Part shown: one piece after another, positions 1 through 17,819 of the stretch
How the letters are laid out: the number at the start of each line of letters is the position of its first letter
Numbering within the stretch: position 1 is the first letter of the stretch
Source: Bacteroidales bacterium
GTDB taxonomy: Bacteria > Bacteroidota > Bacteroidia > Bacteroidales > UBA3824
Direction: 5' to 3'
Assembly: GCA_024413595.1 (NCBI GenBank)
Contig: JAKSUC010000004.1
Span: forward strand, 10,555-74,554
Length of the DNA stretch: 64,000 nucleotides
Notes under the pieces: generated by a model
What the model saw: only the letters and a program-made list of their open reading frames with translations
Database searches by the model: none
What the model was told of the DNA's origin: nothing
Translations under genes and position numbers: made by a program

Positions 1-723
1 CACGCTCTTACTCAATTGAATATGGATTCTGTAATTTTGAAAGGTAATAATTATACTCCTATTATAACATTTTGTGATGCATTACTTATGAGTGATTTTG
101 TATATTTAGGAAATGATACTATAGTAAGTGCTAATGGAATGTTTATTAAGGGGTTTGACGTAGATGAAGTAAATGAGTTTGAATTATATGATGCCAAAAC
201 TGGTAAAGCTTTAAAAGAATATCCTCTTAATGAAAAAAATTTTCCACCACCAACAGTACTAAGAACAATGACATTTAGTAATTCTAAATTTATAGTTTTT
301 TGGGAAAAATTTCCTATTATAAGTATTTATGATAAAAATTTTAATATTATATCTCAATTTCGAGATGCTATATTTGATGATAATGTAATGTCATTTGTTG
401 ATGACAATAATACTATTGCTAGTAAAGAATATTTTTCATTTTATTTTAATTTTAGTTGTAAAACTGAAAACAATATTATAGTACATAATTTTAGATATAA
501 CATTAAATATAAAGATCTTAAATCTCCAGAAGAAATTGATGCAAATGCTACTTATGAAACTTGGATTTTTGATGCAGATATGAACTTAAAACGTAGATTA
601 AAGCCAGAAGTAAAGTTAGAGAATGTTAGAAAAGTTTCATATTCTGAAAAATCTAATACTTTCTATTTAAATTGTAATGACGAAGACGGAGAATTAGCTT
701 TATATAAATGTATCTTAAAATAA
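1..723 (+). CDS. Lipoprotein paralog, C-terminal part (5' end lies outside the window); tentatively BF3164/TolB-like 6-bladed beta-propeller family
   Basis: Frame +1 is open from nt 1 (HALTQLNMDSVILKGNNY...). It aligns by eye, with roughly two thirds identical residues, to residues ~125-365 of ORF 1742..2839 and has the same C-terminus ALYKCILK*. Stop TAA 721-723 overlaps the next ATG (TAATG). Confidence 0.7.
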   Translation, partial: HALTQLNMDSVILKGNNYTPIITFCDALLMSDFVYLGNDTIVSANGMFIKGFDVDEVNEFELYDAKTGKALKEYPLNEKNFPPPTVLRTMTFSNSKFIVFWEKFPIISIYDKNFNIISQFRDAIFDDNVMSFVDDNNTIASKEYFSFYFNFSCKTENNIIVHNFRYNIKYKDLKSPEEIDANATYETWIFDADMNLKRRLKPEVKLENVRKVSYSEKSNTFYLNCNDEDGELALYKCILK

Positions 724-1277
724 TGAAACGAATATTAGTTATATTATTGATTTGTAGTGGTTTATTTTCGTGTAATTCAGGAAATATAACATTATCGTCT
801 TTGTTTAATTCTATAAAAGTGAATGAATCAATGTATAAGATTGATAATGATTTAGATACATCGTTGAATTTGAGTGAATCTAGAAATTTGATATTTTTTT
901 TAGATACTCAATGTTCAGTTTGTATTTCTGAGTTTATTAAATTTATGAAAAAAAATGAGGATTTTAAATATGATTCATTATTAATTGTGGCTCAAGAAGC
1001 ATACGATTTTATTCAGCCACAATTTTTTTTGGAGAAATCAAATCTTTCGCTACCCAAAAACTCTCGAATCATATTTGATCCAAAAAACAAAATATATTCA
1101 ATTATGTTAAACTCTTATGGCAATCAAAATCTTTTACTTGCTGAAAATAAAAAGATTCTTGCTAAAGTTAATACGCAATATTTAATTTATAATAAGGATA
1201 ATGGATATACATTAGACCCAAACCAATTTATAAAAAATGAAAAAAATACCATAGCCCAACGCACTGAGCCACAGTAA
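723..1277 (+). CDS. Thioredoxin-fold-like CxxC lipoprotein, copy 1
   Basis: Start moved from track ATG 708 to ATG 723 (TAATG overlap). MKRILVILLICSGLFSC is a signal peptide plus lipobox Cys. FFLDTQCSVCISEF resembles a thioredoxin/TlpA-type CxxC site. Near-identical paralog at 2839..3357. Confidence 0.65.
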   Translation: MKRILVILLICSGLFSCNSGNITLSSLFNSIKVNESMYKIDNDLDTSLNLSESRNLIFFLDTQCSVCISEFIKFMKKNEDFKYDSLLIVAQEAYDFIQPQFFLEKSNLSLPKNSRIIFDPKNKIYSIMLNSYGNQNLLLAENKKILAKVNTQYLIYNKDNGYTLDPNQFIKNEKNTIAQRTEPQ

Positions 1278-1318
1278 TAAATAAAAAAAATAATTAATTT
1301 TTAGAAAAAAGTGCTCTA

Positions 1319-1334
1319 TTTTTTTTTTTTTTTT
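1319..1334 (+). repeat. Homopolymeric T16 tract
   Basis: 16 consecutive T counted directly (1319-1334), intergenic, 10 nt upstream of a TAnnTTTG box. Confidence 0.95.
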
Positions 1335-1344
1335 AAAACTATTT

Positions 1345-1352
1345 TACATTTG
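1345..1352 (+). promoter_or_regulatory. Candidate Bacteroidota-type -7 promoter element (TACATTTG, fits TAnnTTTG)
   Basis: Exact match to the TAnnTTTG consensus about 110 nt upstream of ATG 1464. The -33 position falls inside the T16 tract. Confidence 0.3.
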
Positions 1353-1463
1353 CGCCATGAAAAACGAACTGATTTTTGTTTAATATTTTATGCGCGCGTA
1401 ACAATAAATTGGATGAGTTTTTTTTTATTAATTAAAACATTTACTAATTTAAATTTAAAAAAG

Positions 1464-1685
1464 ATGAAAAAATTTTTAATTTGTGCCGCAATTGCTGTGG
1501 CTGGTGTAGCAGCTTGGGCTGCAAGTGATAATAATGCTTTTAAAGCTGATGATGCTGATGCTCAGGGTTATATTATAGAGGCATACGGACAATTTTTGGG
1601 ACTTTGTTTCTCTTATCCTAGAACCTGTTCTCTTTCGAGTGGCTATATAACTTATGTATTTCCTGATAGAGCTAATGTAAATTAA
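1464..1685 (+). CDS. Small secreted protein (73 aa) with signal peptide and a C-x6-C pair; unknown function
   Basis: Track ORF 1311..1685 trimmed to ATG 1464. MKKFLICAAIAVAGVAAWA|AS is a typical Sec signal. The mature ~50 aa contains CFSYPRTC. The ORF is locally more GC-rich than its flanks and is followed by a perfect 10-bp hairpin terminator. Confidence 0.6.
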   Translation: MKKFLICAAIAVAGVAAWAASDNNAFKADDADAQGYIIEAYGQFLGLCFSYPRTCSLSSGYITYVFPDRANVN

Positions 1686-1700
1686 TTTATTATAATTATT

Positions 1701-1733
1701 ATACCAAGACTTTTTGTCTTGGTATTCATATTT
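1701..1733 (+). terminator. Rho-independent terminator-like hairpin
   Basis: ATACCAAGAC-TTTTT-GTCTTGGTAT perfect 10-bp stem (1701-1725), followed by a T-containing tail. Confidence 0.6.
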
Positions 1734-1741
1734 AAAGATAA

Positions 1742-2839
1742 ATGAAAGTAATATTTTTTGTATTAATCCTTTTGTTTTTTGCCTCATGTAGTCAAAAACA
1801 AACATATTATCCAGTACCTGACGAAGTAACAATGTTGATAGAAGACAATATGCCTGAAGTAGAAACATTCACTTTAGAAAAGATTTCTTTGCCAACAAAA
1901 TACCAAAATAGCAAATATTTTGTATACGATGATTCTTTAGTAGTAATTTTAAACAATTCAAATCCTAATCCATACTTGGTAAGTGTATACAATTTAAACA
2001 CAAAACAAGAAATAGCAGGATATTTTAAAAAAGGAAATGGTCCTAATGAATTTATGAATTTGTATGGTTATTCTCATAATAAAAATTTATTGTTACAAGA
2101 TGGTAATTTACATGCTTTAACTCAATTAAATATAGATTCTATCATATTAAAAGGAAATAATTATATTCCAAAAATAACTTATCATGATGCTCAAGTTATG
2201 ACAGATTTTGTATTTTTGGGTAATGATACAATAGTAAGTGCAAATGGAATGTTTATTAAAGGTTTTGGCGTAGATAATGTTAGTGAATTTGAATTATATG
2301 ATGCTAATACTGGTAAAGCTTTGCAAAAATATCCTCAAAATGAAAAAAATTTTCCTCCTAATGCAGTATATAGAACAATAACATATAGTAATTCAAAGTT
2401 TGTTGTATTTTGGTCATTATTTCCCGTTATAAGCATTTATGACAAAAATTTTAATATTATTAAACAATATAGAGATGCTAAATTTAAGGATTGTCTTTTG
2501 ACAATACAAGAAGAAGAATTTAATAATATAAAATCAGTAGATGATTTTCTTTTATATTTTACCTTTGGTTGTGAAACTGATAATTTTATAGTTGCATCTA
2601 ATTATAGATATAATATTAAAAGAGAAATGATAAATCCACAATCAAATATTGATTTTTCGAAAGATTATGAAATGTGGATATTTGATACAGATATGAATTT
2701 TAAACGAAGACTTAAGCCAAAAAACTCCGTTAACGAAAATATTTGGTTAGTTTCATATTGTGAAAATTCAAATAATTTTTATTTAACTTGCACTGACGAA
2801 GATGAAGAATTTGCTTTATATAAATGTATATTGAAATAA
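1742..2839 (+). CDS. Lipoprotein, tentatively BF3164/TolB-like 6-bladed beta-propeller family
   Basis: MKVIFFVLILLFFASCSQ is a signal peptide plus lipobox. KKGNGPNEF resembles the G-x-G-P-G-E-F motif I recall from NHL/6-bladed propeller lipoproteins of Bacteroides. Full-length paralog of the partial ORF 1..723. Confidence 0.6.
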   Translation: MKVIFFVLILLFFASCSQKQTYYPVPDEVTMLIEDNMPEVETFTLEKISLPTKYQNSKYFVYDDSLVVILNNSNPNPYLVSVYNLNTKQEIAGYFKKGNGPNEFMNLYGYSHNKNLLLQDGNLHALTQLNIDSIILKGNNYIPKITYHDAQVMTDFVFLGNDTIVSANGMFIKGFGVDNVSEFELYDANTGKALQKYPQNEKNFPPNAVYRTITYSNSKFVVFWSLFPVISIYDKNFNIIKQYRDAKFKDCLLTIQEEEFNNIKSVDDFLLYFTFGCETDNFIVASNYRYNIKREMINPQSNIDFSKDYEMWIFDTDMNFKRRLKPKNSVNENIWLVSYCENSNNFYLTCTDEDEEFALYKCILK

Positions 2840-3357
2840 TGAAAAGATTAATTGCTATAATTTTTATTTGTATTGGGTTAATTTCGTGCAATTCAGATAA
2901 AATTACATTATCGTCTTTGTTTAATTCTATAAAAGTGAATGAATCAATGATTAAGATTGATAATGATTTAGATACTTCTTTGAATTTGAGTGAATCTAGA
3001 AATTTGATATTTTTTTTGGATACTCAATGTTCAGTTTGTATTTCTGAGTTTATTAAATTTATGAAAAAAAATGAGGATTTTAAATATGATTCATTATTAA
3101 TTGTGGCTCAAGAAGCATACGATTTTATTCAGCCACAATTTTTTTTGGAGAAATCAAATCTTTCGCTACCCAAAAACTCTCGAATCATATTTGATCCAAA
3201 AAACAAAATATATTCAATTATGTTAAACTCTTATGGCAATCAAAATCTTTTACTTGCTGAAAATAAAAAGATTCTTGCTAAAGTTAATACACAATATTTA
3301 ATTTATACCTCTGATAACGGATATACACTAGACAAAAACCAAATTATAAAAAAATGA
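2839..3357 (+). CDS. Thioredoxin-fold-like CxxC lipoprotein, copy 2
   Basis: ATG 2839 overlaps stop TAA 2837-2839 (TAATG). MKRLIAIIFICIGLISC is a lipobox signal. Same CSVC motif. nt 3019-3290 are identical to 903-1174. Confidence 0.65.
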   Translation: MKRLIAIIFICIGLISCNSDKITLSSLFNSIKVNESMIKIDNDLDTSLNLSESRNLIFFLDTQCSVCISEFIKFMKKNEDFKYDSLLIVAQEAYDFIQPQFFLEKSNLSLPKNSRIIFDPKNKIYSIMLNSYGNQNLLLAENKKILAKVNTQYLIYTSDNGYTLDKNQIIKK

Positions 3358-5225
3358 AATTTAATAAGTTCTTTATAATATGTAGTTTTTTTGTAACTGC
3401 GTGCAATTTTGGATCAATTGACACAGAAGAACTTTATAGCAATCTCAGCGACAAGCAAAAACTTGCTGCTGAGTTTTTGTTATCAGAAGTTGATAATCGT
3501 TATACGCTTACTAATCAAGATTTAACAGATTTTTATCCTTTTATTGATTCGTTATCGCTTACTGATGTTAAATTTCATGAACAAAAACAACTTCTTGAAG
3601 ATTTTTTTGCTAATCATTCGTCTGCCAAATCTTATTATGTATATGATAAAAGTCAATTAACTACTCAATATTTAAAACAAAATATTCTTGATGCTTTTAA
3701 ATATTATCAGCAATCATGGAATAGTTATCTACCTGATACTGCTTTTTTTCAATATGTTTTGCCATATCGAGTAGGAGATGAACCATTAGAAGATTGGCGT
3801 AATTTTTTTATTCAAAAATATGGTTATATTCTTGATAGCTTGATTAATACAAATCAACCAATATCAACAGAACTTCTTGCAACCGAAATTCTAAAGGTTT
3901 TAAAACTTCGTGAAATAAAAACTTTGCAAACAAATGTATATAGCAAGACTCTTCGACCATCAACGTTAGATAAAATAAAAGTTGGTCAATGTACAGATTA
4001 TTGTGATTATGTAAATTTTGTGATGCGCACTTTTGGCATTCCATGTGCTAAAGATGGTATTTTTGATTGGCATTGTTGGAATGCAATTCTTGCAAAAGAT
4101 TCTACAATAGATGTTTATGTAGAATGTACACCAGAAGATCAACATTTAAAAAATTGGCTATTTTATACAGGTTGGAAAAATCTACCCAAAATTTGGCGTG
4201 AAACTTTTACAAAAAATCCAAATTCTTTAGCAGAAATTCATGGCGAAGAACCTATCCCTCAATATTTTAAAAATCCTTATATGGTGGATGTTTCAAATGA
4301 ATATTTTGAAGGTCAATCGGCAGATTTTCAAGTAGATAATAATCCTTATAATTCAAATTTTGCATATCTAAAAGTTTGGAACAATAAATTTGTTTATGTT
4401 GATTGGGCAAAAATAGAAAAAGATAATGCTAAATTTAATAATATTAGTGATTCAGTGGTTTATTTTCCTTCATATTATAATAGTCAAAAAGAACAAAAAC
4501 CATTGTCTTATCCATTTGTTATAACAGAAAAAGGTCGTCGAGATTTTGTTGCTGACACAATCAACACACAAAAAATGGTTTTGTATCGCAAATATTTAAT
4601 CAAACGTACACATAATTTATACTTAAAGCGTATGTTAGATGGATATTTTATAGGAGCAAACAAACCTGATTTTAGTGATTCGGTTCGAATTTATACTATT
4701 TCGGAAATGCCATTAATGAAGTGGAACGAAGTTGAAATTTCTCTAAATAAATCTTTCAAATATATTAAATATGTTGCGCCTATTTGGTCGTGGTTAAATG
4801 TTGCTGAATTAGAGTTTTATAATCCAGAAGGCAAAAAACTTAAAGGTAAAATTCTTGGTTGTAATAATTTTAGTGAAGCTCATTATTCGTCAAAAAATGC
4901 TTTTGATGGCGATGTTTTAACCTACGTTGATGCCATAGAACCACATTATGAATGGCTTGGACTTGAATTTGATGAACCTCAACAGATTTCAAAAATTCGT
5001 TATATTCCGAGAAATGATGACAATTTTGTACAAAAAAATCAATTATATGAACTTCAATATGCTGATTTAAAAGGTTGGCATTCAATGGGTATTCAAAATG
5101 CCTATGCCGATTCGGTTACTTTTTATAATGTGCCTTCAAATGCAATTTATTTACTAAAAGATTTGACCAAAGGACACGAAGAGCGTATATTTGAATATGT
5201 TGATGGCAAACAAGTTTTTTGGTAA
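3354..5225 (+). CDS. Transglutaminase-like lipoprotein with C-terminal F5/8 type C (discoidin) domain
   Basis: Lipobox FFVTAC. GQCTDYCDYVNFVMRTFGIPCAKDG...WHCWNAIL matches the transglutaminase-like Cys/His core. The C-terminus (AFDGDVLTYVDA...WLGLEFDEPQQISKIRYIPRND) is discoidin-like. ATGA overlap with the upstream gene. Confidence 0.75.
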   Translation: MKFNKFFIICSFFVTACNFGSIDTEELYSNLSDKQKLAAEFLLSEVDNRYTLTNQDLTDFYPFIDSLSLTDVKFHEQKQLLEDFFANHSSAKSYYVYDKSQLTTQYLKQNILDAFKYYQQSWNSYLPDTAFFQYVLPYRVGDEPLEDWRNFFIQKYGYILDSLINTNQPISTELLATEILKVLKLREIKTLQTNVYSKTLRPSTLDKIKVGQCTDYCDYVNFVMRTFGIPCAKDGIFDWHCWNAILAKDSTIDVYVECTPEDQHLKNWLFYTGWKNLPKIWRETFTKNPNSLAEIHGEEPIPQYFKNPYMVDVSNEYFEGQSADFQVDNNPYNSNFAYLKVWNNKFVYVDWAKIEKDNAKFNNISDSVVYFPSYYNSQKEQKPLSYPFVITEKGRRDFVADTINTQKMVLYRKYLIKRTHNLYLKRMLDGYFIGANKPDFSDSVRIYTISEMPLMKWNEVEISLNKSFKYIKYVAPIWSWLNVAELEFYNPEGKKLKGKILGCNNFSEAHYSSKNAFDGDVLTYVDAIEPHYEWLGLEFDEPQQISKIRYIPRNDDNFVQKNQLYELQYADLKGWHSMGIQNAYADSVTFYNVPSNAIYLLKDLTKGHEERIFEYVDGKQVFW

Positions 5226-5246
5226 AATTTTGAACTAACTACTACA

Positions 5247-6089
5247 ATGAAAAATCTTTTATACAAAATATTTTGGATAATTATAATTTTGATATTTATT
5301 TGGTTTATAATCAAAATATTTGTAGGTGTATCTTTTAATATACCATCTGAATCAATGTTACCAACATTAATGCCTGGTGATAAAGTTTTTGTTAATAAAA
5401 CTATTTATGGTCCAAGATTTTATAATGTATTCAAAAAAGAAATAACTCATCAAGATATTTACCAAATGTCTGGTTTTGGAAACGTAGAGCGAGGTGATGT
5501 CTTTGTTTTTAATGCTTTACAACGTGATTATTATTGGGGAGAACTTTCATTTTATAAAAACAAATATTTTATAAAACGATGTATGGCAATAGCTGGAGAT
5601 ACTTTACAAATAATTGATTGTCGTTATTATATAAATGGCAAAAAAATGACTGGTGTATTTGATGAAGGTCAGCGAGTATTAGCTGAAATAATCAATGATC
5701 CCATTCGTAGAGATTCTTCTTTTGTTTCTATCAATGCTTTTCCATACAATTGTGGTTGGACATTAAAAGATTTTGGACCATTATATATTCCAAAATCAGG
5801 AGATACAATAGAAATTAATCAAAATACAATGTCGCTTTATGGAGCAATAATTCGTTGGGAACTTTCGCAAGATATAGTAGAAAAAAATAATCAATATTTT
5901 GTAAATGATACATTGTTAACATATCATGTTTTTGATAATGATTGCTATTTTATGGCAGGTGATTTTGCAGCCAATAGCAACGATTCGCGATTTTGGGGAC
6001 TTGTTCCTAAAGATTTTATTGTTGGCAAAGCCACAACTATTTGGTATTCATCGGCTGAACAATCGGGTAGAGTAGGAGAAAAGCTATGA
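5247..6089 (+). CDS. lepB: Signal peptidase I (S26 family)
   Basis: N-terminal TM. SESMLPTL (catalytic Ser box), IKRCMAIAGD (Lys box), GDFAANSNDSRFWGLVP (GDN-x-S-x-DSR box). Confidence 0.9.
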   Translation: MKNLLYKIFWIIIILIFIWFIIKIFVGVSFNIPSESMLPTLMPGDKVFVNKTIYGPRFYNVFKKEITHQDIYQMSGFGNVERGDVFVFNALQRDYYWGELSFYKNKYFIKRCMAIAGDTLQIIDCRYYINGKKMTGVFDEGQRVLAEIINDPIRRDSSFVSINAFPYNCGWTLKDFGPLYIPKSGDTIEINQNTMSLYGAIIRWELSQDIVEKNNQYFVNDTLLTYHVFDNDCYFMAGDFAANSNDSRFWGLVPKDFIVGKATTIWYSSAEQSGRVGEKL

Positions 6090-7645
6090 AAATAAATATA
6101 TTATCATTAGTAAAAAAAGATTATTTTCTAATCTTTTTAGCTTTTGCATTAATCTTTTGGATTATTTGTCCTGATTATTTTTTAAGTGCTTCTGAGTATG
6201 ATACTTTTCAATATAGTCAGTTTAAATCTATATGTTTTAGAGGATTAATTGGATTTCCTCTATTAATTTTACTTAAAATTAAATGTGAGTCAAAAAATAT
6301 TTTGTTAGCAATAGTATTTGCCATTTCTCTAAGTGGAGCAATAGAATCAGTTTTATCATTAATGCAACTTTTGGGCATAATAGAATCTAAACATGCTGTT
6401 TTTAGAATAACAGGCTCTTTTTACAATCCTGGTCCATTAGGAGGATATTTGGCAATATGTGATGTTGTTGCAATAGCATATTTTATCAAAAACAAACTTT
6501 ATTTGTCAAACGCAAATAAATTTGAAAAATGTATATTTACTACATTTATTTTATTGATTTCAATAGTTTTACCAGCTACATTTAGTAGAACAGCTTGGAT
6601 TGCTTTAATTATTTCAATTGGATATTTGATTTTATCACGACAAGAAATTAGAAATTATTTTAAAAATAATTTACGTAATGTCTTGATTATTAGTGCTATT
6701 ATTTTAGGATTAATAACTTTAGTTTTTGCAAAAAAATCAGTTTCTTCATCTGGACGTTTTCTGATTTGGAAAATTTCATCAATTGCAATTGCTGAATCTC
6801 CAATTTCAGGTAATGGAAATTTTGAAGTAGCTTATCGCGATGCAAGTATAAAATATTTTTCGCAAAAAACATATTCAGATTCAGAATTTAGAGCTGTTGA
6901 TTATGTAAACAATGCTTTTAATGAATATTTGGAAATTGCAGTAAGATTTGGTGTTCCAATTAGTTTGCTTTTTATTATTTTAATAGTTGTTTGTTTTATT
7001 ATAGGACACAAACATCATCGTAATGAATTTTGCGTAGGATTATTGGCTTTGACTGTTTTTTCTTGCGCTTCTTATCCTTTACATCTTGCAAATTTTGTTA
7101 TTTTATTGATATTTTGTTTATTAGGATGTGTTTTACCTGCTGAAAACAAAATATTTTTACCAATTATTGGTTTAATTTGTTTTGTTATGTCCATATTTGG
7201 TTATAAATATTATTTACCAAAATCAGATGATATTTTATTACTAAGTCAACCAGATTTCTTTTATAGTAATAAAGACTATTCCACAGCAGCGTATTATTAT
7301 AATAAATTATATCCTCAATTGTCTTATAATGAATTGTTTATGTATAAATATGGTTATTCTTTATTTATGAATAATCAAACAGAAAAAGCAATAACAATAT
7401 TTAACGAAATTTATAATAAAAATGGTAATCCAAATATATGTAAAATATTAGGAAAATTATACCTTTGTAAAAGTGATTTTGTAAATGCAGAAAAGTATTT
7501 AACCCAAACAATAAATATTTTACCTAATCGCATTGAATCTTATAATTTATTGATTGATATGTATTCACGCGATGATTATAAAAATGAAATTTTAGAAAAA
7601 CAACTTAAAACATTTATTGCAACTCATAAATTTAAAGATAATTAG
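6086..7645 (+). CDS. O-antigen ligase-like (Wzy_C family) polytopic membrane protein with C-terminal TPR region
   Basis: About 10 TM segments. FSRTAWIALIIS and NAFNEYLEIAVRFG resemble Wzy_C loop motifs. The C-terminal ~130 aa has TPR-like repeats. ATGA overlap with lepB. Confidence 0.6.
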   Translation: MKINILSLVKKDYFLIFLAFALIFWIICPDYFLSASEYDTFQYSQFKSICFRGLIGFPLLILLKIKCESKNILLAIVFAISLSGAIESVLSLMQLLGIIESKHAVFRITGSFYNPGPLGGYLAICDVVAIAYFIKNKLYLSNANKFEKCIFTTFILLISIVLPATFSRTAWIALIISIGYLILSRQEIRNYFKNNLRNVLIISAIILGLITLVFAKKSVSSSGRFLIWKISSIAIAESPISGNGNFEVAYRDASIKYFSQKTYSDSEFRAVDYVNNAFNEYLEIAVRFGVPISLLFIILIVVCFIIGHKHHRNEFCVGLLALTVFSCASYPLHLANFVILLIFCLLGCVLPAENKIFLPIIGLICFVMSIFGYKYYLPKSDDILLLSQPDFFYSNKDYSTAAYYYNKLYPQLSYNELFMYKYGYSLFMNNQTEKAITIFNEIYNKNGNPNICKILGKLYLCKSDFVNAEKYLTQTINILPNRIESYNLLIDMYSRDDYKNEILEKQLKTFIATHKFKDN

Positions 7646-7706
7646 TTTAACAATCAAATTTGTTATTTTAATATTACAAGAATAAATCGATAAAAGAGAA
7701 ATTTAA

Positions 7707-8756
7707 ATGAATTATAAATTAAAACTGCTTACTTTAATATCATTAAGTTTAGTTTCTTGTGGCAATAAAACTGAAAATCAAGAGTCTGAACTTCAAGAAA
7801 TATTTGATAAAACTTTGCCAACAGTAAAAGTAGAAGTTGCAAAAATCGACAATTTTGGAAGTGAAATATTATGTAATGGTCGCATAACAGCAGATGATTT
7901 TACCGATGTATTCTGGCAAAATCAAGGAATTATTACAGAAATAAAAACACGAAATGGTGCATACGTTAATAAAGGTGATGTATTGGCAATAACCGATAAT
8001 TTTAAAACTAAAAATAATTTTGAATCTGCAAAAATAGATTTAGAACAAGCTGAAATATCGTTTATGGATTTAATCGTTGGTCAAGGATTTACGATTGATA
8101 ATGTACCTGAAAATATAAAAGAAACAGCCGAAATAAAAAGTGGCTTAACCAAGGCAAAAATCAATTATGAATTATGTCAAAATGAATACAATAATTCTGT
8201 TTTAATTGCACCATGTTCGGGGGTGGTTGCAAATCTTGAAAATCGAGGTAAAGGATTAAATAATACAGGTAAAGCATTTTGTAGAATTATCAATACAAAA
8301 TCAATGAAAGTAGATTTTCAAGTTATGGAAAGTGAATTACATTCAATAAAGATAGGAAGTAAAGTTGAGGTTCGTCCATTTGCTTATCCTGGAGAAAAAT
8401 TTTATGGAATAATAGATGAAATAAATCCAATAGTTGAAGCTAATTCTATAATAAAAATATCTGCAAAAATAGACAATCCAAAAACATTGTATGATGGTAT
8501 GAATGTAGATGTTTCTGTTAAACAAGATGTTGGTAAATATATTTCAGTAAACAAATCAGCACTTGTAAAACGAAGCAATAAAGATGTAGTTTTTGTAGCC
8601 AAAAATAATAAAGCATGGTGGCATTATGTAACCACAGGTTATGAAAATTTTGAACGCATTGTTATTCTTGATGGAATACAAGAAGGTGATAGTGTCATAG
8701 TTAGTGATAATATAAATCTTGCCGATCGCAGTGATATCGTAGTAAAAAATGATTAA
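7707..8756 (+). CDS. Efflux RND periplasmic adaptor (membrane fusion protein) lipoprotein
   Basis: Lipobox LSLVSCG. Lipoyl-like GDVLAITD, coiled-coil hairpin and beta-barrel segments typical of the HlyD/AcrA family. Overlaps the next gene by 8 nt. Confidence 0.8.
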   Translation: MNYKLKLLTLISLSLVSCGNKTENQESELQEIFDKTLPTVKVEVAKIDNFGSEILCNGRITADDFTDVFWQNQGIITEIKTRNGAYVNKGDVLAITDNFKTKNNFESAKIDLEQAEISFMDLIVGQGFTIDNVPENIKETAEIKSGLTKAKINYELCQNEYNNSVLIAPCSGVVANLENRGKGLNNTGKAFCRIINTKSMKVDFQVMESELHSIKIGSKVEVRPFAYPGEKFYGIIDEINPIVEANSIIKISAKIDNPKTLYDGMNVDVSVKQDVGKYISVNKSALVKRSNKDVVFVAKNNKAWWHYVTTGYENFERIVILDGIQEGDSVIVSDNINLADRSDIVVKND

Positions 8757-11700
8757 GTTTCTTATTCATAAACCTATAGCAATAATTATGACATTTTTGG
8801 CTTTAACAATAATTGGAGCCATTGCATGTTTTAATTTGCCAATTAGTATGTTGCCTCATTTCTCTGTACCAGAGATTGTTGTAAAAATTAATGGTCAAAA
8901 TATTTCTGCTCGCGAACTAGAAAATTCTCGAACGTCAGTTATTCGTCACCAATTATTGCAAACTTCTCATTTAAAAGATATTGAAAGTCGTACAGAAGAT
9001 GGTTCGGCAATTATTAATTTACGATTTGATTTCGGCACAGACATAGATTTAGCTTATATCGAAGTTAATGAAAAAATTGATGCTGTTTCTAACACTGGAA
9101 ATGTAACATTTGAACGTCCCAAAGTAATAAAATATAATGCAACAGATTTTCCTGTATTCTATTTAAACATTACTCCAAAAGTAAAAGATACTTTAGTAAA
9201 TCAAATGCTTTTTGTTGGCAATGCTGTTAAAAATAATATTTGTCGACGTTTAGAACAAATACCTGAAATTTCGGTAGTTGATGTTACTGGTATTCCTGAA
9301 AAACAAATTCTTCTTTCTCCCAAAAATGATAAACTACAAGCCGCTGGTTTAACTATTAGTGATTTAGAAAATATTTTAAAATCAAATAATATTGAACCAC
9401 TTGGTATTAGAGTAAAAGACGGTTATTATCAATATAATATGAAAATGTCGTCTCTTTTGCTCAATGTTAGTGATATTGAAAATATATATATTAATGTTTC
9501 TGAACGAGTTGTTCAACTCAAAGATTTGTGTGATGTTCGTGAAGATTATTTACCATCGTCTGGTTATGCTATTTATAATGGTAAAGAAGAAATTTGTTGT
9601 GCAATTTATAATAATAACGAAGCAAACTCTGATAATTTGAAACAAGAAGTAGAAAATCTTCTTTTAGAATTTGAATCTAATTTTCCTCAACTAGAATTTA
9701 ATTTGTCAAAAAATCAAACGGAATTGTTGATTTTTACTATCGAAAATCTAAAACAAAATCTTGTAATTAGCTTAATTTTAATATTTATTATTGGATATTT
9801 TTTTATTGGTGACGCAAGATCTTCATTTATAATAATGATATGTATTATAGTTTCATTAATTATATCATTTATACCATTTTATATTTTTGATAAATCACTT
9901 AATATAATTTCTTTGTCAGGAATAATTCTAGCAGTTGGAATGATGATTGACAATGCATTGATTATTTGTGAAAATATCAATCAATATCAAGTAAGAGGAT
10001 TAACATTAAGTTGTTCTGCCTCTTTTGGAACTTCAGAATTGATAGCTCCTTTGTTAAGTTCCTCTCTTACAACAGTTGCAGTGTTTGTACCTTTAATTTT
10101 TTTAGGATCTATAGCAGGTGTTCTTTTTGAAGATCAAGCATTTGCTATAGCTTGGGGATTGATTGTTTCTTATGTAGTTGGCATTTTTTTCTTACCTGTG
10201 TTGTATCATTTAATGTTTATAAAACCAACTTTAAATTCTTCAGTTTCAAAACAAAGTTCATTTCCTCGTGCAACAAATTTTTATAATAAGATTTATAATT
10301 TTGTTTTATCTCATCAATCATTAGTTTTAATTTCTGTTTTTATCTTGATTATTTTAGGTTCATTTATGGGATTCAAAATTCCTATTGAAAAAATGCCTAA
10401 AATTGAGTATAATGAAATTTCGGCAAAAGCAGAATTTAATAATGTTAACGAAGATGAAAATTTTGATAAATCAAAAGAGATTCTTTCTTTTACAGATTCT
10501 CTTTGTATAGAAAGTCAAGCATTTGTTTCAGGTCAAGATTTTATGATTGACGAGATGGGAAATCTAAAACCTAACCAAACAGAATTTTATTGGCGTACAA
10601 ATAGTTACGAAGAAGCAGAAAATTTACGAAAACTTACACAGGCTAAATTTTCACAACTTTATCCTAATTCAGTAATTTCATTTTATTCACCCGTAACTCT
10701 ATTTGATAAACTATTTGAAAGTAGTCAACCTGATATTTCTGCTCATTTTACAAATGAACTACATATTTCTGGTGTAGATGATATAAATAAAATTAAAGGT
10801 TTATATCAAAATTTAAATGAAAGATGTAAAATAAATTTTCCTGATTTAAAAAAATCTCGAACTCTAGTTGTAAATCGTCGAATTATGCAAATTTATGATA
10901 TATCATTAGATGAAATTAAGGAAGATATCAAGAAAAATTTTTCAATATCTAATGTTCTAATAATTAATTCTACTGGTGAATTTTTGCCTGTTAGTTTTGT
11001 TGGAAATCAAAAAGATATTGATTATTTTATAGCTAACGCTTCATATAAAAAGAAGATTTCTGATAAAATAATTGAAGTTCCATATAGTTCTATAATACAG
11101 ATTGTTTCAGAAGAAAATCCTAAAACAATATTTGCTGGTAAAGATGATGAATATTTACCAATTAATTTTTATGATGTTGTTGATGGTAATGTTATTATAG
11201 AAAAAACTCAGTCTATTGTAAAAAATATTGATAATGAAAAGGTTACGTTTGTTGGAACATACTTTGAAAATCGTGAAATGATGCAAAGATTAATATATGT
11301 TTTGCTTGTAGCTGTTCTTTTAATGTATTTTATTTTATGTGCTCAGTTTGAAGATTTTGTTCAACCTTTGATTGTTTTGTTAGAAATTCCAATTGATATT
11401 GCATTAACAATATTAGTATTATATTTAACAAATCAATCGTTAAATTTAATGTCTGCTATTGGTATTATAGTTTCGTGTGGTATTGTGATTAATGATTCTA
11501 TACTAAAAATTGATACTATCAATAAATTAAGAGCTTCTGGAATGGAAATGCGTAAAGCAGTGCATACAGCAGGTTTACGACGAGTAAAAGCAATTTTAAT
11601 GACTTCGCTTACAACAATAGGCGCTGTTATTCCAGTTTTGTTTGCTTCTGATGCGGGTTCTCAAATGCAAACACCACTTTCTGTGGCAATTATTGCTGCT

Positions 11701-11790
11701 ATGTTTTTTGGTACTTTAGTTAGTATTTATATTATACCACTTTTATATATGGCTATAACTAAAAATAAAAAATTTGATAAAAAATATTGA
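8749..11790 (+). CDS. RND efflux permease (AcrB/AcrD/AcrF family), copy 1
   Basis: 1013 aa with 1+6 / 1+5 TM topology and two large periplasmic loops. GMMIDNALI and GIVINDSIL are conserved TM4/TM10-type motifs. Confidence 0.85.
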   Translation: MIKFLIHKPIAIIMTFLALTIIGAIACFNLPISMLPHFSVPEIVVKINGQNISARELENSRTSVIRHQLLQTSHLKDIESRTEDGSAIINLRFDFGTDIDLAYIEVNEKIDAVSNTGNVTFERPKVIKYNATDFPVFYLNITPKVKDTLVNQMLFVGNAVKNNICRRLEQIPEISVVDVTGIPEKQILLSPKNDKLQAAGLTISDLENILKSNNIEPLGIRVKDGYYQYNMKMSSLLLNVSDIENIYINVSERVVQLKDLCDVREDYLPSSGYAIYNGKEEICCAIYNNNEANSDNLKQEVENLLLEFESNFPQLEFNLSKNQTELLIFTIENLKQNLVISLILIFIIGYFFIGDARSSFIIMICIIVSLIISFIPFYIFDKSLNIISLSGIILAVGMMIDNALIICENINQYQVRGLTLSCSASFGTSELIAPLLSSSLTTVAVFVPLIFLGSIAGVLFEDQAFAIAWGLIVSYVVGIFFLPVLYHLMFIKPTLNSSVSKQSSFPRATNFYNKIYNFVLSHQSLVLISVFILIILGSFMGFKIPIEKMPKIEYNEISAKAEFNNVNEDENFDKSKEILSFTDSLCIESQAFVSGQDFMIDEMGNLKPNQTEFYWRTNSYEEAENLRKLTQAKFSQLYPNSVISFYSPVTLFDKLFESSQPDISAHFTNELHISGVDDINKIKGLYQNLNERCKINFPDLKKSRTLVVNRRIMQIYDISLDEIKEDIKKNFSISNVLIINSTGEFLPVSFVGNQKDIDYFIANASYKKKISDKIIEVPYSSIIQIVSEENPKTIFAGKDDEYLPINFYDVVDGNVIIEKTQSIVKNIDNEKVTFVGTYFENREMMQRLIYVLLVAVLLMYFILCAQFEDFVQPLIVLLEIPIDIALTILVLYLTNQSLNLMSAIGIIVSCGIVINDSILKIDTINKLRASGMEMRKAVHTAGLRRVKAILMTSLTTIGAVIPVLFASDAGSQMQTPLSVAIIAAMFFGTLVSIYIIPLLYMAITKNKKFDKKY

Positions 11791-13271
11791 TAATGAAAAA
11801 ATTATTAGTTATTATTATATGTTTTTGTTGTTCAATTGTTTATGGTCAAAATTCTTCAAAAAAAACTTTGACTTTAAATGATGCTATTAATATAGCTTGC
11901 GATAGTTCGCTTAGTGCGTTTAAAAATAAAAATTTGTATATGAGTGCTTATTGGCAATATAGAAATTTTAAAGCCGATATGCTACCTTCTTTAACTTGGA
12001 ATATAACACCTATTGAATTCTCTCGTTATCTTACAATGCGTTACGATTCTGAAGATAATATTGATATATATCGTGAACAAAAATCATATTCTACTGGAAC
12101 TGGTTTGAAATTAAATCAAAATTTTATTCCATTGGGTGGTTCTTTTTATATTGAGACTAATTTAAATTATTTAAAAAACTTCGGAGATAATACTTATGAA
12201 CAATATTCTGGTGTTCCTATAATGATTGGATATAGTAATCAAGTGTTAGGCTATAATAGTTTTAAATGGGATAGACGTATTGAACCACTTAAATATGAAC
12301 GAAATAAAATAGAATATATTTCTAATTCAGAACAAGTTTCTATTGAAACAATGCAATATTTCTTTGCTGCTATTTCTGCACAAATGAATTACCAATCTGC
12401 TCTATTTCAATTAAATAATTGTGATACATTAGTAGCAATAGCAGAAAGAAAGATGAAATATCTATCAGTTGAAAAATCAGATTTGTTGTCGCTTAAAGCA
12501 GATGTTTTAAGTGCCAAAAATCGTTTGTCTCAAACAATTATTGCACTCGACAAAGCACGCTCTGAGTTATTTAATTTTCTTAGAATAAATGATTTTAACG
12601 ATATAGAATTGGTTATGCCAGAATCTCCTGATTCTATTGAATTCGATCTCAATTTAGCAATTGAAATGGCAAAAAAATATTCTACGTCAATTTTAGAACA
12701 ACAAGAAACTATTCTTGAAAAAGAACGTCAACTAGATGAAATAAATAAAACAACACGATTTAATGCCTCTGTGAGTGCATCTGTTGGTTTTAATCAAGTA
12801 GCTGAAAATATTTCTGGTGTTTATAAAGATCCTTTAGAACAAGATTTAGCTCTGATTAGTGTACAAGTTCCGCTTTTGGATTGGAGTAAAGGAAAAGGTA
12901 AACGAAATATTGCGAAAAATGAACTTGAAATTTCTAAAATAGAAATTGAACAGCGTATAAATAAAATAGAACAAGATGTAATAAATTATATTGCTGAAAT
13001 TTCTACTAGACGCGAAATTCTAATTAATAATTATAAAGTTTTAGACTTAGCTCAAGAAGTATATCAACAACAAATAAAAAAGTTTCAGAATGGTAATCTT
13101 GATGTAACATCTATTTCTATGGCTCAGTCAAAATTAGAAACTGCTCAGAGTGATTATTTATCTAGTATTTCAGAATATTGGCAGTGTTATTATCAATTGC
13201 GAAAACTTACACTTTATGATTTTGAAAATAAAATTTCACTTTCTGAAAAATTTGATTTTGAAAATTTATAA
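11787..13271 (+). CDS. TolC-family outer membrane efflux protein
   Basis: Signal peptide, two-repeat alpha/beta organisation, position inside the RND operon. ATGA overlap upstream and TAATG overlap downstream. Confidence 0.8.
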   Translation: MIMKKLLVIIICFCCSIVYGQNSSKKTLTLNDAINIACDSSLSAFKNKNLYMSAYWQYRNFKADMLPSLTWNITPIEFSRYLTMRYDSEDNIDIYREQKSYSTGTGLKLNQNFIPLGGSFYIETNLNYLKNFGDNTYEQYSGVPIMIGYSNQVLGYNSFKWDRRIEPLKYERNKIEYISNSEQVSIETMQYFFAAISAQMNYQSALFQLNNCDTLVAIAERKMKYLSVEKSDLLSLKADVLSAKNRLSQTIIALDKARSELFNFLRINDFNDIELVMPESPDSIEFDLNLAIEMAKKYSTSILEQQETILEKERQLDEINKTTRFNASVSASVGFNQVAENISGVYKDPLEQDLALISVQVPLLDWSKGKGKRNIAKNELEISKIEIEQRINKIEQDVINYIAEISTRREILINNYKVLDLAQEVYQQQIKKFQNGNLDVTSISMAQSKLETAQSDYLSSISEYWQCYYQLRKLTLYDFENKISLSEKFDFENL

Positions 13272-16234
13272 TGAAAAAACAAAAATTTATATTATCACCT
13301 TTTGCTGTTGTAGTAGTTGCAGTTTGCTCAATGTTGATAGGAATTGCATTATTGCCACTATTATCTACAACTTTATGGCCTGAAAATAATAATTATTCTA
13401 TATCAATTAGTTATGAATTTCCTGGTGCTTCAGAACGTATTGTAGAATCCAAAGTTACTTCTGTTTTAGAAAATGCTTTGTCTAGTATATCTGGTGTCAC
13501 ATCTATTTCTTCAAATTCTAGTTCAGGACAAGGTTCAATAAATATAAATTTTGATGAATATATCAATCCAGATGTTACTCGTTTGGAAGTTTCTGCTGTT
13601 TTGCGTCAAATAGCTTCTGAATTGCCAGAAGGTGTAACTTATCCAATAATTTCATCAAATTCTCAGTATAGTAATGATAATGAGCCTTTTTTAGTTTATT
13701 CTATCAACTCTATGAATGACGCTTCGCAAATTAAGCCAATTGCGGAAAAAGTTTTGAAAACATCATTTGCAAATCTTGATGGTCTTTCTGAAGTAAATGT
13801 TACTGGTGGTGATGTTTATGAGATGATTTTGTCTTATGATAGCAATAAATTAAGAGCTGCAAACCTAACACCTGAAATAATTGGTAATGTAATAAGAGAA
13901 TCATTTTCGTCTCATTATGTTAACGAATATAAATTGGTTTTTAATGATAGTATTTCTGATGATTTTATACCTGAAAATATTTTTGTTAAAAATGAGGATT
14001 CACTTTATTTTCAACTTAAATCATTAATTAACTGTAAGATACAAAAACAAGATCCTTCTTATACTTTTCGTGTTAATGGTAGAAATTCTGTTTATGCTCG
14101 TTTTTATGCTACTTCGCAAAGTGATATTCTTTCTATGAAAAATATAATTGAAAAACGAATTTATACTCTTAATAAAAAAATATCTGATGATGTAGAAATC
14201 ATCAAAACTACTGATAATTGCTCTTATATCGAAAACGAAATTTATGGTCTTTTAATACAAGTTATTTTATCTTTTGGAATATTAACATTAATAATTTTTT
14301 TAACTACTTTTTCATTTAGATACTTATTTACAGTTTTGTTTTGTATTTTTATTAATTTATTGTCTGCAATTATTTTCTATTATATTTTTGATATTGGTAT
14401 TAATTTAATGACAATTGCTGCATTTTCAGTTGTTTCTGGTTTGATAGCTGATAACATTATTGTTTCATACAATCATTTAAAAATCAAGAAAAATCTAAAA
14501 GTTATTTTGCCAATTTTGGCTGCAACACTTACTACTGCTGGTTCTTTGTTTATTATATTTTTTGTTAATAAAGAATTAAAAGAATCTCTCTATGATTTTT
14601 GTATAGTTATAATTATCAACTTGTTGCTTTCAGTTATTGTTGCACTGTTAGTTGTGCCTGCAATTGTAAAAATGCAATCTAGCAATTTAAAATCTAAAAC
14701 TAATAAATTCAAAATGAAACGTTTTTTAGGACGTATTTCACTAAAATACAAAAGTATAGTAGCATTTCAATTGAGATTTAAATTCCTTTTTATCATCTTT
14801 TTTCTTGGTTTGTTTTGTTTTTCATTTTGGCTTTTTAAAACAGATGTTCAATCAGGCGAATATTATAATCGAAAAGGTGAAATTTGTTTGTCTATTGATG
14901 CTTCAATGCCATGTGGGGCGGTTTTTGAAGAAACTGATGCTCTTATTAAAAAAATGGAAGTATTTTTATCTAGTTTTGATCGTATTCGTCAATTTAATAC
15001 TTATATTTACAATTCTAGACAAGCTAGAATACAGATATATTTTACAAAAAAAGGTCGTAATAGTGCTTTCCCTTATATTTTGAAATCAAAAATTATAGAT
15101 AAAGCTTTACAATTTGGTGCAGGAGCATGGACTGTTTATGGGTTACCTGATCAAGCTTTTAATAATGATGTAAAAGAAATGTCTGGAAACTATTGTCTTC
15201 AAATTCAAGGTTTTAATTATGACGAACTATTGGTTATTGCTGATAGTATTAAACAAGATTTGATGAAAAGTCCTCGTATTGTATCTGTTGATATAAATCC
15301 TGAACAATCTTTTTTTAAAGATGATAATTTTGAATATGTTTTAATTCCTAATTTAAAAAAGTTGGCAGAATTAAATATTTCTACAGCATCATTTTGCAAT
15401 ATATTTCATGATGATATTACTTGTGGACAAACTTTTATTGATAATAATATTATTAATATGATTTTGCGCTCTAGTAATAATTCTGATAAAGATATTTATT
15501 CGATGCTCAATAAGATTATAAATATAGGTGATAAAAAAATTAGGATTTCTCAAATTGTAGATTTTAAACAAGTAAAGGCTCAAAAATCTATTTCTAGAGT
15601 AGATAGACAATATCAAATTTTTTTACAGTTTGACTATTTAGGTTCTGAAAAAAACGCAAATAAACGTTGTGATAGCATTGTTACAGCTTATAATTTTAAA
15701 ATTCCTGCTGGTTATAAAGTAAAGCATTTGCAATACGATTTCCAAAATAAAAATTTTCCAACAGAAGTTTTTTTATTGTTGATAATAGCATTAATTATTT
15801 TTTTCATCACTGCAATTTTGTTTAATTCTTTAAAATATGCCTTTGTAATTTTATTATTATTACCTGTAGCATTTACAGGTAGTTTCTTTACATTTTGGTT
15901 GTTTGATATTAAATTTGATTCGGGTGGTTTTGCATCTTTTGTTCTTTTGAGTGGATTAACTGTAAATTCCGGAATTTTTGTAATTTATGAATTTATTAAT
16001 GAGAAAACAAAAAATAAAAATCATTACTATTCTTTTTTTAAAGCATTAAATATCAAAATTGGTGCTATATGTCTTACAATTTTATCAACTATTGCAGGAT
16101 TTTCACCTTTTATAATTGCATCAGAACACGAAAGTTTCAGATATTCACTAGCTTGTAGTACTTCTGGTGGTTTATTTTTTTCAATTACAGGGTTACTATT
16201 TTTATTGCCTCTATTTTGCTTAAAAAAAATGTAA
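13271..16234 (+). CDS. RND efflux permease (AcrB family), copy 2, divergent from copy 1
   Basis: 987 aa with the same 12-TM/two-loop layout. SGLIADNIIV and SGLTVNSGIF are TM4/TM10-like motifs. Confidence 0.8.
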   Translation: MKKQKFILSPFAVVVVAVCSMLIGIALLPLLSTTLWPENNNYSISISYEFPGASERIVESKVTSVLENALSSISGVTSISSNSSSGQGSININFDEYINPDVTRLEVSAVLRQIASELPEGVTYPIISSNSQYSNDNEPFLVYSINSMNDASQIKPIAEKVLKTSFANLDGLSEVNVTGGDVYEMILSYDSNKLRAANLTPEIIGNVIRESFSSHYVNEYKLVFNDSISDDFIPENIFVKNEDSLYFQLKSLINCKIQKQDPSYTFRVNGRNSVYARFYATSQSDILSMKNIIEKRIYTLNKKISDDVEIIKTTDNCSYIENEIYGLLIQVILSFGILTLIIFLTTFSFRYLFTVLFCIFINLLSAIIFYYIFDIGINLMTIAAFSVVSGLIADNIIVSYNHLKIKKNLKVILPILAATLTTAGSLFIIFFVNKELKESLYDFCIVIIINLLLSVIVALLVVPAIVKMQSSNLKSKTNKFKMKRFLGRISLKYKSIVAFQLRFKFLFIIFFLGLFCFSFWLFKTDVQSGEYYNRKGEICLSIDASMPCGAVFEETDALIKKMEVFLSSFDRIRQFNTYIYNSRQARIQIYFTKKGRNSAFPYILKSKIIDKALQFGAGAWTVYGLPDQAFNNDVKEMSGNYCLQIQGFNYDELLVIADSIKQDLMKSPRIVSVDINPEQSFFKDDNFEYVLIPNLKKLAELNISTASFCNIFHDDITCGQTFIDNNIINMILRSSNNSDKDIYSMLNKIINIGDKKIRISQIVDFKQVKAQKSISRVDRQYQIFLQFDYLGSEKNANKRCDSIVTAYNFKIPAGYKVKHLQYDFQNKNFPTEVFLLLIIALIIFFITAILFNSLKYAFVILLLLPVAFTGSFFTFWLFDIKFDSGGFASFVLLSGLTVNSGIFVIYEFINEKTKNKNHYYSFFKALNIKIGAICLTILSTIAGFSPFIIASEHESFRYSLACSTSGGLFFSITGLLFLLPLFCLKKM

Positions 16235-17756: not shown

Positions 17757-17785
17757 CGGACAACTTTTTGTTGTCCGTTTTTTTT
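17757..17785 (+). terminator. Rho-independent terminator
   Basis: CGGACAAC-TTTTT-GTTGTCCG followed by T8. Confidence 0.75.
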
Positions 17786-17819
17786 GTTTTTTTTATGTAT
17801 AATTAATAATATTTTTGTT

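Follow-up and report, generated by a model that had tools for sequence, protein, structure and literature searches.

Individual domains of the proteins treated here are already known, as is the general scheme in which a peptide made of leader and core is encoded together with linked processing and export genes. In the Bacteroidales, bacteroidetocins and other class II bacteriocin loci, which Coyne et al. reportedly described in 2019, are said to comprise small Cys peptides with a removable leader, a thiol-oxidoreductase-like protein and a dedicated exporter. The heat-stable enterotoxin of Escherichia coli passes through Sec, signal peptidase, DsbA, periplasmic removal of its pro-peptide and TolC/MacAB efflux, all of them housekeeping factors, and S26 enzymes dedicated to one operon are exemplified by SipW, which serves TasA/TapA in Bacillus subtilis, and by the TraF-type pilin peptidases. 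Here we describe a locus in a 64,000-nucleotide stretch of a Bacteroidales bacterium (contig JAKSUC010000004.1 of assembly GCA_024413595.1; hereafter the window, with positions counted from its first letter), in which a repeated peptide-propeller-CxxC cassette is joined to a block of transglutaminase, S26, Wzy_C and RND genes. The window has a G+C content of ~26%, and the nearest relatives of its protein products belong to Bacteroidales that live uncultured in the guts of animals and in the rumen. Our reading, which we hold to have an even chance of being right, is that the locus would encode a Sec-dependent pre-pro-peptide pathway with a dedicated signal peptidase, a disulfide oxidoreductase, a transglutaminase-fold protease and an RND exporter.

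Among described gene sets, the Bacteroidales cassettes of NVEALA (PF14055), TolB_like (PF15869)-DUF5128 and DUF1573 proteins, all Pfam-defined families, resemble the window in their peptide, which has an N-terminal hydrophobic segment, a leader ending in [DE]-A-x-A and a hypervariable Cys-rich tail, and in the adjoining gene for a six-bladed propeller lipoprotein that is followed by one for a CxxC-bearing protein. Their neighbours include the transglutaminase-fold lipoprotein (TG), S26, Wzy_C and RND proteins, and their propellers are homologous to that of the window. Differences are nevertheless evident: the window peptide misses the NVEALA profile beyond the signal peptide, the CxxC protein is a 172-residue lipoprotein without the Ig-like domain of DUF1573, and the propeller lies under the Pfam thresholds. 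The bacteroidetocin loci are alike in the small ribosomal Cys peptides, removable leader, adjacent thiol-oxidoreductase-like protein and exporter, and in two related loci (L009/L017 in our numbering) a C39-ABC exporter and a Thioredoxin_2 protein are encoded next to a close homologue of TG. The leader of the window peptide is however a Sec signal peptide plus pro-region rather than a double-glycine leader, the protease is S26 rather than C39 and the exporter RND rather than ABC; furthermore, we know of no propeller, transglutaminase or Wzy_C partners in bacteroidetocin loci.

Further comparisons can be made with four other systems. The radical S-adenosylmethionine (SAM)/SPASM clusters of Bacteroidales that produce ribosomally synthesised and post-translationally modified peptides (RiPPs; surveyed in PMC10352776) are represented among our related loci by a sister architecture, described below, which has TG and a Wzy_C-TPR protein in common with the window, whereas the window is without the radical-SAM enzyme and the M50-like protease, and maturation would be periplasmic; that survey of Bacteroidales RiPPs makes no mention of transglutaminase, O-antigen ligase, signal peptidase or propeller genes. 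The O-antigen ligase WaaL and the oligosaccharyltransferases PglL/PglS share with the window protein a Wzy_C profile match, an alignable membrane domain and two invariant arginines, but the TG-linked clade lacks the catalytic His, carries a C-terminal TPR domain and is partnered in the window with a peptide locus instead of a lipopolysaccharide or pilin-glycosylation locus. As with SipW and the TraF-type peptidases, the window has an S26 enzyme, here with an intact Ser/Lys dyad, encoded in an operon with a presumed secreted substrate; the relation between enzyme and substrate is a putative one in the window. Finally, the enterotoxin provides the closest functional parallel for the proposed order of steps on a small Cys-rich pre-pro-peptide, for each of which the window locus encodes a candidate, yet this likeness is functional only, the components not being shown to be homologous.

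Directly seen are the gene content, a leader/core layout of the peptide, intact catalytic residues in S26 and TG, and a linkage that is conserved in many Bacteroidales species. The initial annotation, made on the letters of the window, had described five linked genes for exported proteins next to a small secreted peptide as an operon. Checking of the open reading frames (ORFs) on the window sequence reproduced the coordinates of each named gene and all junctions, namely TAATG at 2837-2841, ATGA at 3354-3357 and 6086-6089, and a 21-nt gap at 5226-5246. The export signals were recovered as well: lipoboxes on three products, read as FASC (…FFASC) for the 1742 product, LISC (…GLISC) for the 2839 product and VTAC (…FVTAC) for the 3354 product, transmembrane segments on S26 and Wzy_C, and a signal peptide on the 73-residue ORF. 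The same applies to the motifs GNGPNEF, CSVC, GQC...WHCWN, SESM/KR and C-x6-C. Of the five-gene operon with its peptide, the linkage stands while the borders do not, the unit being bigger on both sides. Upstream, a further propeller and CxxC pair is found at 1-723 and 720-1277, and the peptide gene is flanked by two such pairs; downstream, a set consisting of a membrane-fusion protein (MFP), an RND subunit, an outer-membrane efflux protein (OEP) and a second RND subunit extends over 7707-16234 on the same strand, after a gap of 61 nt from the Wzy_C gene. Clustering of all ORFs placed window genes in clusters common to related loci only within 1-16234.

The peptide gene (1464-1685, plus strand, as for every gene of the unit) encodes a 73-residue pre-pro-peptide with a Sec-type signal peptide, an acidic pro-region ending in ADA and a variable core with the C-x6-C pair. 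Five more representatives were recovered as homologues by an exhaustive HMMER search, and others from their contigs and from the contig of one propeller homologue; the small ORF is accordingly a genuine gene, conserved and found in company with the propeller/CxxC pair. For the comparison of leader and core, seven members were used, and a second peptide of locus L101 was left out. Residues 1-33 follow the consensus MKK-[ILF]FLIAAIAVAGVAAWAAS-NTN-x-[FYL]-x-x-[DE]-D-A-x-A, and the mean pairwise identity of the seven is 83% over this part and 24% beyond it, where the core varies in length and holds 2-5 Cys. A conserved leader, a hypervariable core and adjacent processing and export genes are thus all found. 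The omitted second peptide of the L101 tandem has another signal peptide and the same pro-region, NNTNVFKTDEANAG = NTNVFxx[DE][DE]AxAG, which suggests that conservation of the pro-region does not depend on the signal peptide. The two tandem genes, at 769-981 and 1147-1356 of L101, have the pro-region NTNVFxx[DE][DE]ANAG in common and related cores ending in CHGHxV.

Each peptide gene adjoins a propeller gene and a CxxC lipoprotein gene, sometimes in the company of a gene for a 204-252-residue protein, and the cassette is repeated within the locus in L098, L103 and the window. The separate termination proposed for the peptide gene is supported by a terminator-like hairpin at 1701-1725 (plus strand) between peptide and propeller genes, with a 10-bp stem followed by a T-rich stretch and with a counterpart in the same place in L097; such a hairpin would fit transcription of the precursor above the level of the downstream genes. 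Ahead of the gene, a run of 16 T at 1319-1334 is seen by eye upstream of a candidate Bacteroidetes-type -7 box, TAcaTTTG (1345-1352); the run could act as a UP-like promoter element or be prone to slippage. The window peptide has no Pfam match, NVEALA (PF14055) included, and no NCBIfam match. Membership in NVEALA was also rejected with a profile from 29 neighbouring NVEALA peptides, which gave a match confined to the signal peptide at 6.0 bits, in the range of shuffled controls. Two further small elements were noted in related loci. Just 3' of the L097 peptide gene, at 258-333, lies an out-of-frame partial second copy of the 3' end of the core (…GGICYCFDGMSKAFTL…), perhaps a core cassette that has decayed or is kept in reserve, and a hint of recombinational turnover of cores. 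A conserved ORF of 76-79 residues (MKITIGI.SDIYNTI.TMLDINNKRLGF…), without a signal peptide and without a window counterpart, overlaps the stop of the CxxC gene at L098 7753-7983, L101 370-609 and L103 538-777.

The 280-residue product of 5247-6089 matches the type I signal peptidase profiles PF10502 with 118 bits (cut-off 22.9) and TIGR02227 with 115 bits (cut-off 47), in agreement with its initial assignment to S26. It has a single N-terminal hydrophobic transmembrane segment, and its Ser36, in the SESM box, aligns with the SGSM box of the E. coli enzyme. A comparison of 17 TG-linked S26 proteins showed no variation at Ser36 or at Lys110-Arg111, and with the catalytic Ser/Lys dyad intact, the protein is predicted to be an active signal peptidase. 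No second S26 gene is present in the 64-kb window. In Parabacteroides leei (L079), two S26 genes lie inside one 22-kb TG region, and for this reason the two are not both the housekeeping enzyme. This pair and the linkage of S26 to TG in 15 species indirectly favour a putative accessory role of such copies beside a housekeeping lepB.

Profile searches reached S26 and Wzy_C directly, while the propeller, thioredoxin-like and TG proteins fell below the Pfam thresholds and were assigned from profile-profile, family or structure evidence. For TG (3354-5225; 623 residues), in which a transglutaminase core and a discoidin domain had been suspected, this evidence bears out the assignment at the level of family and structure. 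The window protein gives no PF01841 match at E<=0.1, nor an NCBIfam match for this core, and matches F5_F8_type_C at 24.0 bits (E 4.7e-5), under the cut-off of 28.2; homologues that are 26-36% identical to it carry precomputed PF01841, one being named a transglutaminase domain-containing protein by NCBI, and most homologues carry precomputed PF00754. Across 31 sequences, G211-x-C213 and H240 are invariant, and an acidic residue ~10-14 positions past the His is common without being invariant. The model (pLDDT 89.9, pTM 0.82) shows a transglutaminase fold with Cys213/His240, a beta-sandwich and a C-terminal discoidin/CBM-like domain, and Foldseek matched it to peptide:N-glycanase (PNGase; probability 0.99-1.0), Streptococcus pyogenes TglA (0.93) and factor XIIIa, with the C-terminal domain matching CBM62 at probability 1.0. 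The E-values are only ~1e-3 because the query has several domains. Relatives of TG occur at 424 places in species-representative genomes, for example in Tannerella forsythia, Segatella copri, Parabacteroides and Phocaeicola spp.

The gene at 6086-7645 encodes a 519-residue polytopic membrane protein of the Wzy_C superfamily with about 10 hydrophobic segments and a C-terminal TPR domain, both parts agreeing with the earlier assignment; PF04932 is matched with 62.4 bits against a cut-off of 31.7. Searches of the PDB with the single sequence and with the full-length family profile returned TPR matches, and a profile truncated to the membrane domain (38 family members) was used instead, matching WaaL 7TPG with E 2.8e-17 and the O-oligosaccharyltransferase 9RMK with E 3.1e-15. 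Arg168 and Arg224 are invariant in the 38 sequences and align with the WaaL arginines; in PglS/WaaL, these arginines are proposed to coordinate the pyrophosphate of undecaprenyl-pyrophosphate (Und-PP) and a histidine is the proposed catalytic base, the H324A mutant of PglS serving as an inactive control (PMC12800693). The position of this histidine in the (A/S)HN motif is taken by Phe278 in the window protein, and no His is found there in any of the 38 TG-linked proteins (F in 25, P in 11, Y in 1, L in 1). Judged from these alignments, the TG-linked Wzy_C-TPR proteins form a distinct His-less branch of the superfamily. The initial annotation had read a role in glycosylation or ligation from the Wzy_C assignment; with the catalytic His of WaaL/PglL/PglS gone in all 38, this idea is weakened.

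The propeller lipoprotein of 1742-2839 (365 residues) is assigned as a six-bladed NHL/TolB-like beta-propeller from hhalign, profile search and model. It has no Pfam or NCBIfam match at E<=0.1, the BF3164-family model included, so that the propeller fold and family proposed at the outset hold and a direct database match does not. Alignment of its subfamily with the TolB_like/DUF5128 members of related loci gave a probability of 98.5% in hhalign (E 2.7e-15 over 315 columns); a word-index search found 6 homologous proteins and a profile search 12, with carriers of PF15869/PF17170 among the profile matches. The AlphaFold model (pLDDT 70.9, pTM 0.73) has six-bladed NHL propellers as structural neighbours, as well as BVU_1028 (DUF4221) and BF0058, two Bacteroides structural-genomics proteins (E 1e-9 to 5e-8); two peptide-processing propellers, peptidyl-alpha-hydroxyglycine amidating lyase (PAL) and glutaminyl cyclase, also appear, the neighbours overall spanning E 1e-9 to 2e-7. 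The GNGPNEF motif corresponds to the nearly invariant G-x-x-P-x-E of the family. Of the upstream paralogue, the window start leaves the 3' part of ~235 codons (1-723; full protein P0003, 367 residues, 67% identical to the 1742-2839 product), and the two propellers are about 63-67% identical, as against 91% for the neighbouring CxxC copies. In L003, the first propeller copy (3706-4862) is broken into pieces of 293 and 47 residues, with intact paralogues after it, and is probably a frameshifted pseudogene. Two gene-sized NCBI records, JALNLU016940263.1 and JALNLU016940260.1, from an assembly of very many records (GCA_024500515.1), exactly match the 1742-2839 gene and its upstream paralogue.

The CxxC lipoprotein is present as a first copy at 720-1277 and a second at 2839-3357, each with CSVC. 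A thioredoxin-like nature, as originally suggested for the 172-residue second copy, is supported weakly: the motif is there and the Pfam threshold is missed, while seven PDB profile matches, all of them weak, are all of thioredoxin fold and aligned at the CxxC. The two cysteines are invariant in 5 aligned sequences and a hydrophobic strand precedes them. Homology to the CT[SG]C domain of the DUF1573 neighbours was considered and dropped, the hhalign E-value of 0.056 not being significant. Over the 3' end of the first copy, at 1247-1276, lies a GC-rich hairpin with a 13-bp stem in surroundings of 26% G+C, which coincides with the extra C-terminal residues that set copy 1 apart from copy 2.

The efflux genes that complete the unit encode an MFP, or periplasmic adaptor (7707-8756), a first RND subunit of AcrB type (8749-11790), a TolC-like OEP (11787-13271) and a second AcrB-type RND subunit (13271-16234), all on the plus strand and overlapping or abutting. 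Their profile matches are HlyD_D23 at 1.2e-15, ACR_tran at 5e-140 and 8.5e-88, and OEP at 2.6e-24. Beyond the module and outside the conserved neighbourhood follow a minus-strand phosphate acetyl/butyryl-transferase-like gene (16382-17287) and an S8 subtilase gene (17784-19223). A defence-system origin was rejected, PADLOC assigning 0 families for all six products.

To place the window among its relatives, all ORFs of 80 species-level TG loci, 37 of which are >=15 kb, and of metagenomic loci were clustered and the neighbours of TG counted. Wzy_C is near TG in 44 of the 80 loci (27 of the 37 loci >=15 kb), propeller families in 25, CxxC/DUF1573 proteins in 20, S26 in 15, a radical-SAM maturase in 14, RND/MFP/OEP in 13 and NVEALA peptides in 10. 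Propellers accompany 12 of the 15 S26 loci and RND/MFP/OEP 8, and in 8 the gap between TG and S26 is <130 nt. S26 loci and radical-SAM loci do not overlap at all, and from this zero co-occurrence we derive two exclusive architectures around TG and Wzy_C, which form the most constant pair over both. The 14 radical-SAM loci hold a radical-SAM/SPASM RiPP maturase, a Cys-rich precursor, an HExxH (M50-like) intramembrane protease and an outer-membrane barrel, and in none of them is a propeller found. The order in this sister architecture, which is recognisable from its predicted products as a RiPP cluster, is TPR regulator, TG, radical-SAM/SPASM maturase, Cys-rich precursor, outer-membrane barrel, HExxH protease and Wzy_C-TPR.

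The other architecture, type A, is represented by L043, with NVEALA, propeller, DUF4221, CxxC-DUF1573, TG, S26 and Wzy_C, followed further on by MFP and RND, and L059, L091, L028, L092 and L095 resemble it. Cultivable carriers of type A include Parabacteroides goldsteinii DSM 19448, P. leei, P. faecis and Bacteroides ihuae. In these related loci, the NVEALA peptides have a conserved hydrophobic leader ending in …N-V-E-A-L-A and a hypervariable Cys-rich tail, and adjoin TolB_like propellers and CT[SG]C plus DUF1573 proteins. The window fits the type-A layout with a non-NVEALA peptide and with a stand-alone CxxC lipoprotein where these loci have the CT[SG]C-DUF1573 protein. The statement in the initial annotation that TolB-like propellers cluster with NVEALA peptides therefore applies to the related loci, but not to the window itself, where the peptide is no NVEALA member and the propeller has no BF3164 match. 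In L096, the closest relative with flanks (TG 86% identical), the same synteny is seen, running from the end of a propeller gene through CxxC, TG, S26 and Wzy_C-TPR to MFP; together with the recurrence of the families in many species, this identifies the co-location as conserved rather than incidental. By this survey of neighbourhoods, the gene set appears as a widespread one in Bacteroidales, of which the window is one copy.

Some features of the related loci stand apart from the window. In L009/L017 (1-9971), the genes immediately before TG encode a C39-peptidase ABC exporter, Thioredoxin_2 and a set of MacB/HlyD/ABC efflux proteins, a gene order that ties the TG family to a third peptide-export context. 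A protein of ~510-620 residues with a lipoprotein signal, TPR, a transmembrane segment and a C-terminal helix-turn-helix-like domain flanks cassettes or TG (L098 2948-4489, L003 5887-7425 and 21 of the 80 TG loci); none is encoded in the window part of the locus. It might be a candidate transmembrane one-component regulator, perhaps peptide-sensing. In Bacteroides thetaiotaomicron, the near neighbours BT0662 and BT0664 are listed as 'O-antigen ligase family protein' and '6-bladed beta-propeller' in an iron-responsive table with weak statistics (PMC10434189), a pair that may mark a locus resembling type A in a model organism.

In the proposed pathway, the precursor would cross the inner membrane via Sec, whereupon the dedicated S26 enzyme would cleave after the signal peptide and/or after the A-x-A of the pro-region. 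The signal peptide of the window family ends in A-W-A, the pro-region in A-x-A, and the NVEALA leader in A-x-A as well; such endings follow the -3/-1 rule that is classical for type I signal peptidases. The CxxC lipoprotein could then make or shuffle the disulfides of the core, and the transglutaminase-fold Cys/His enzyme may trim the pro-region as a cysteine protease, or cross-link. The MFP-RND-OEP pump would carry the matured peptide out of the periplasm and through the outer membrane. Each propeller would bind the peptide with which it is paired, whether to confer immunity, to serve as chaperone or to modify a terminus; PAL and glutaminyl cyclase are among its structural neighbours. Judging from analogous systems, we consider antagonistic (bacteriocin-like) or signalling peptides the most likely products.

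Several observations weigh against this pathway. Each step past the gene content is something that we infer; the thioredoxin assignment is weak, with a best PDB E-value of 0.017 and Pfam AhpC-TSA at E 0.02; and TG and Wzy_C, the most conserved partners, have the least explained roles. To our knowledge, RND pumps are not established as exporters of ribosomal peptides, and the pump could protect the producer itself, or its position could have other causes. Scanning of the metagenome contigs of JGI yielded no further peptide-bearing loci. Moreover, the cassette and the TG block are separable, the cassette array of L003/L004 stopping at a GH3 gene, and the 66%-identical TG of L009/L017 sits beside a C39-ABC bacteriocin-type exporter without S26. 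Such separability, seen in L003 and L098, the occurrence of TG in other contexts such as that of L009, and the many among the 80 loci that consist of TG plus unrelated genes only would also suit a loose neighbourhood, where cassettes, TG-S26-Wzy_C genes and RND pump are separate envelope functions sharing regulation or a variable region. We regard this as improbable, considering that S26 lies within 10 kb of TG in 15 of 80 species and Wzy_C in 44 of 80, far above chance; a genome of several thousand genes holds few of each family, for which we estimated, rather than computed, a chance rate of ~1-2%. The overlapping or abutting of genes on one strand, the strict exclusivity of S26 and radical-SAM back-ends around the TG/Wzy_C pair and the shared synteny of L096 speak against it as well.

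The conserved pair also invites a reading as envelope modification or anchoring, the main idea of the initial annotation, in which Wzy_C-TPR would use an Und-PP-linked glycan for glycosylation or ligation of the peptide, or of some other substrate at the surface, TG would bind or edit the conjugate, and the product would be retained at the surface. It draws on the membrane-domain matches to WaaL 7TPG and 9RMK, on the invariance of both arginines proposed to coordinate Und-PP (PMC12800693), on the resemblance of TG to PNGase and of its C-terminal domain to CBM62, and on the constancy of TG/Wzy_C in both architectures. We nonetheless consider it unlikely, as the catalytic His is replaced in all 38 TG-linked Wzy_C proteins, the window module has no glycosyltransferase, flippase or sugar-nucleotide genes, and a surface-retained product leaves the linked RND/OEP efflux genes unexplained. 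Yet another explanation starts from the cassette: the Cys-rich peptide could be a small cross-linked subunit of the paired propeller lipoprotein, with the other genes maturing or delivering the complex, in likeness to quinohemoprotein amine dehydrogenase, whose gamma subunit owes its maturation to a radical-SAM enzyme and a leader peptidase. The genes for peptide and propeller do occur in one-to-one pairs that duplicate jointly, the propeller paralogues have diverged to about 63-67% against 91% for the CxxC copies, and the sister architecture has a radical-SAM/SPASM maturase. A conserved cofactor-bearing subunit would, however, hardly be hypervariable in length, sequence and Cys number as the cores are, propellers occur in 0 of the 14 radical-SAM-type loci, and L079, L051 and L101 have several peptide genes per propeller, leaving this account very improbable.

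Alongside the Sec-dependent peptide pathway, a bolder proposal can be put forward, which we think rather doubtful. TG and the His-less Wzy_C-TPR protein would constitute a periplasmic machine of as yet unknown kind for peptide tailoring or hand-over, common to the Sec/S26/propeller/RND and the radical-SAM/M50/barrel pathways and with new chemistry, and the propellers would be cognate immunity or specificity factors of hypervariable Bacteroidales toxins. An example of such chemistry would be the attachment of the peptide to, or its release from, an undecaprenyl-phosphate-linked or glycan carrier.

The initial annotation knew of no such combined module, and congruent with this, the literature searched gave no account of its function. 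Full-text searches returned no paper containing NVEALA and none on DUF5128, DUF4221 or DUF4934, only incidental mentions of DUF1573 and BF3164, and no paper on Bacteroides in which transglutaminase, O-antigen ligase and radical SAM come together; for S. pyogenes TglA, nothing bearing on function was retrieved. The specific gene combination, the His-less Wzy_C-TPR branch and the TG/Wzy_C core common to two peptide pathways thus appear to be undescribed in that literature.

Many gut communities are dominated by Bacteroidales, yet only a small number of peptide toxins or signals is known from this order. The products of the locus may represent a class of bacterial toxins or signals that is new. 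If secreted hypervariable disulfide peptides with paired propellers are indeed made, they would represent a large untapped class of molecules for competition or signalling; NVEALA, TolB_like/DUF5128, DUF4221 and the DUF1573-linked CxxC proteins would gain a function, and a branch of the O-antigen ligases without the catalytic His would have a role outside lipopolysaccharide. The gene set is open to direct experiments in cultivable carriers.

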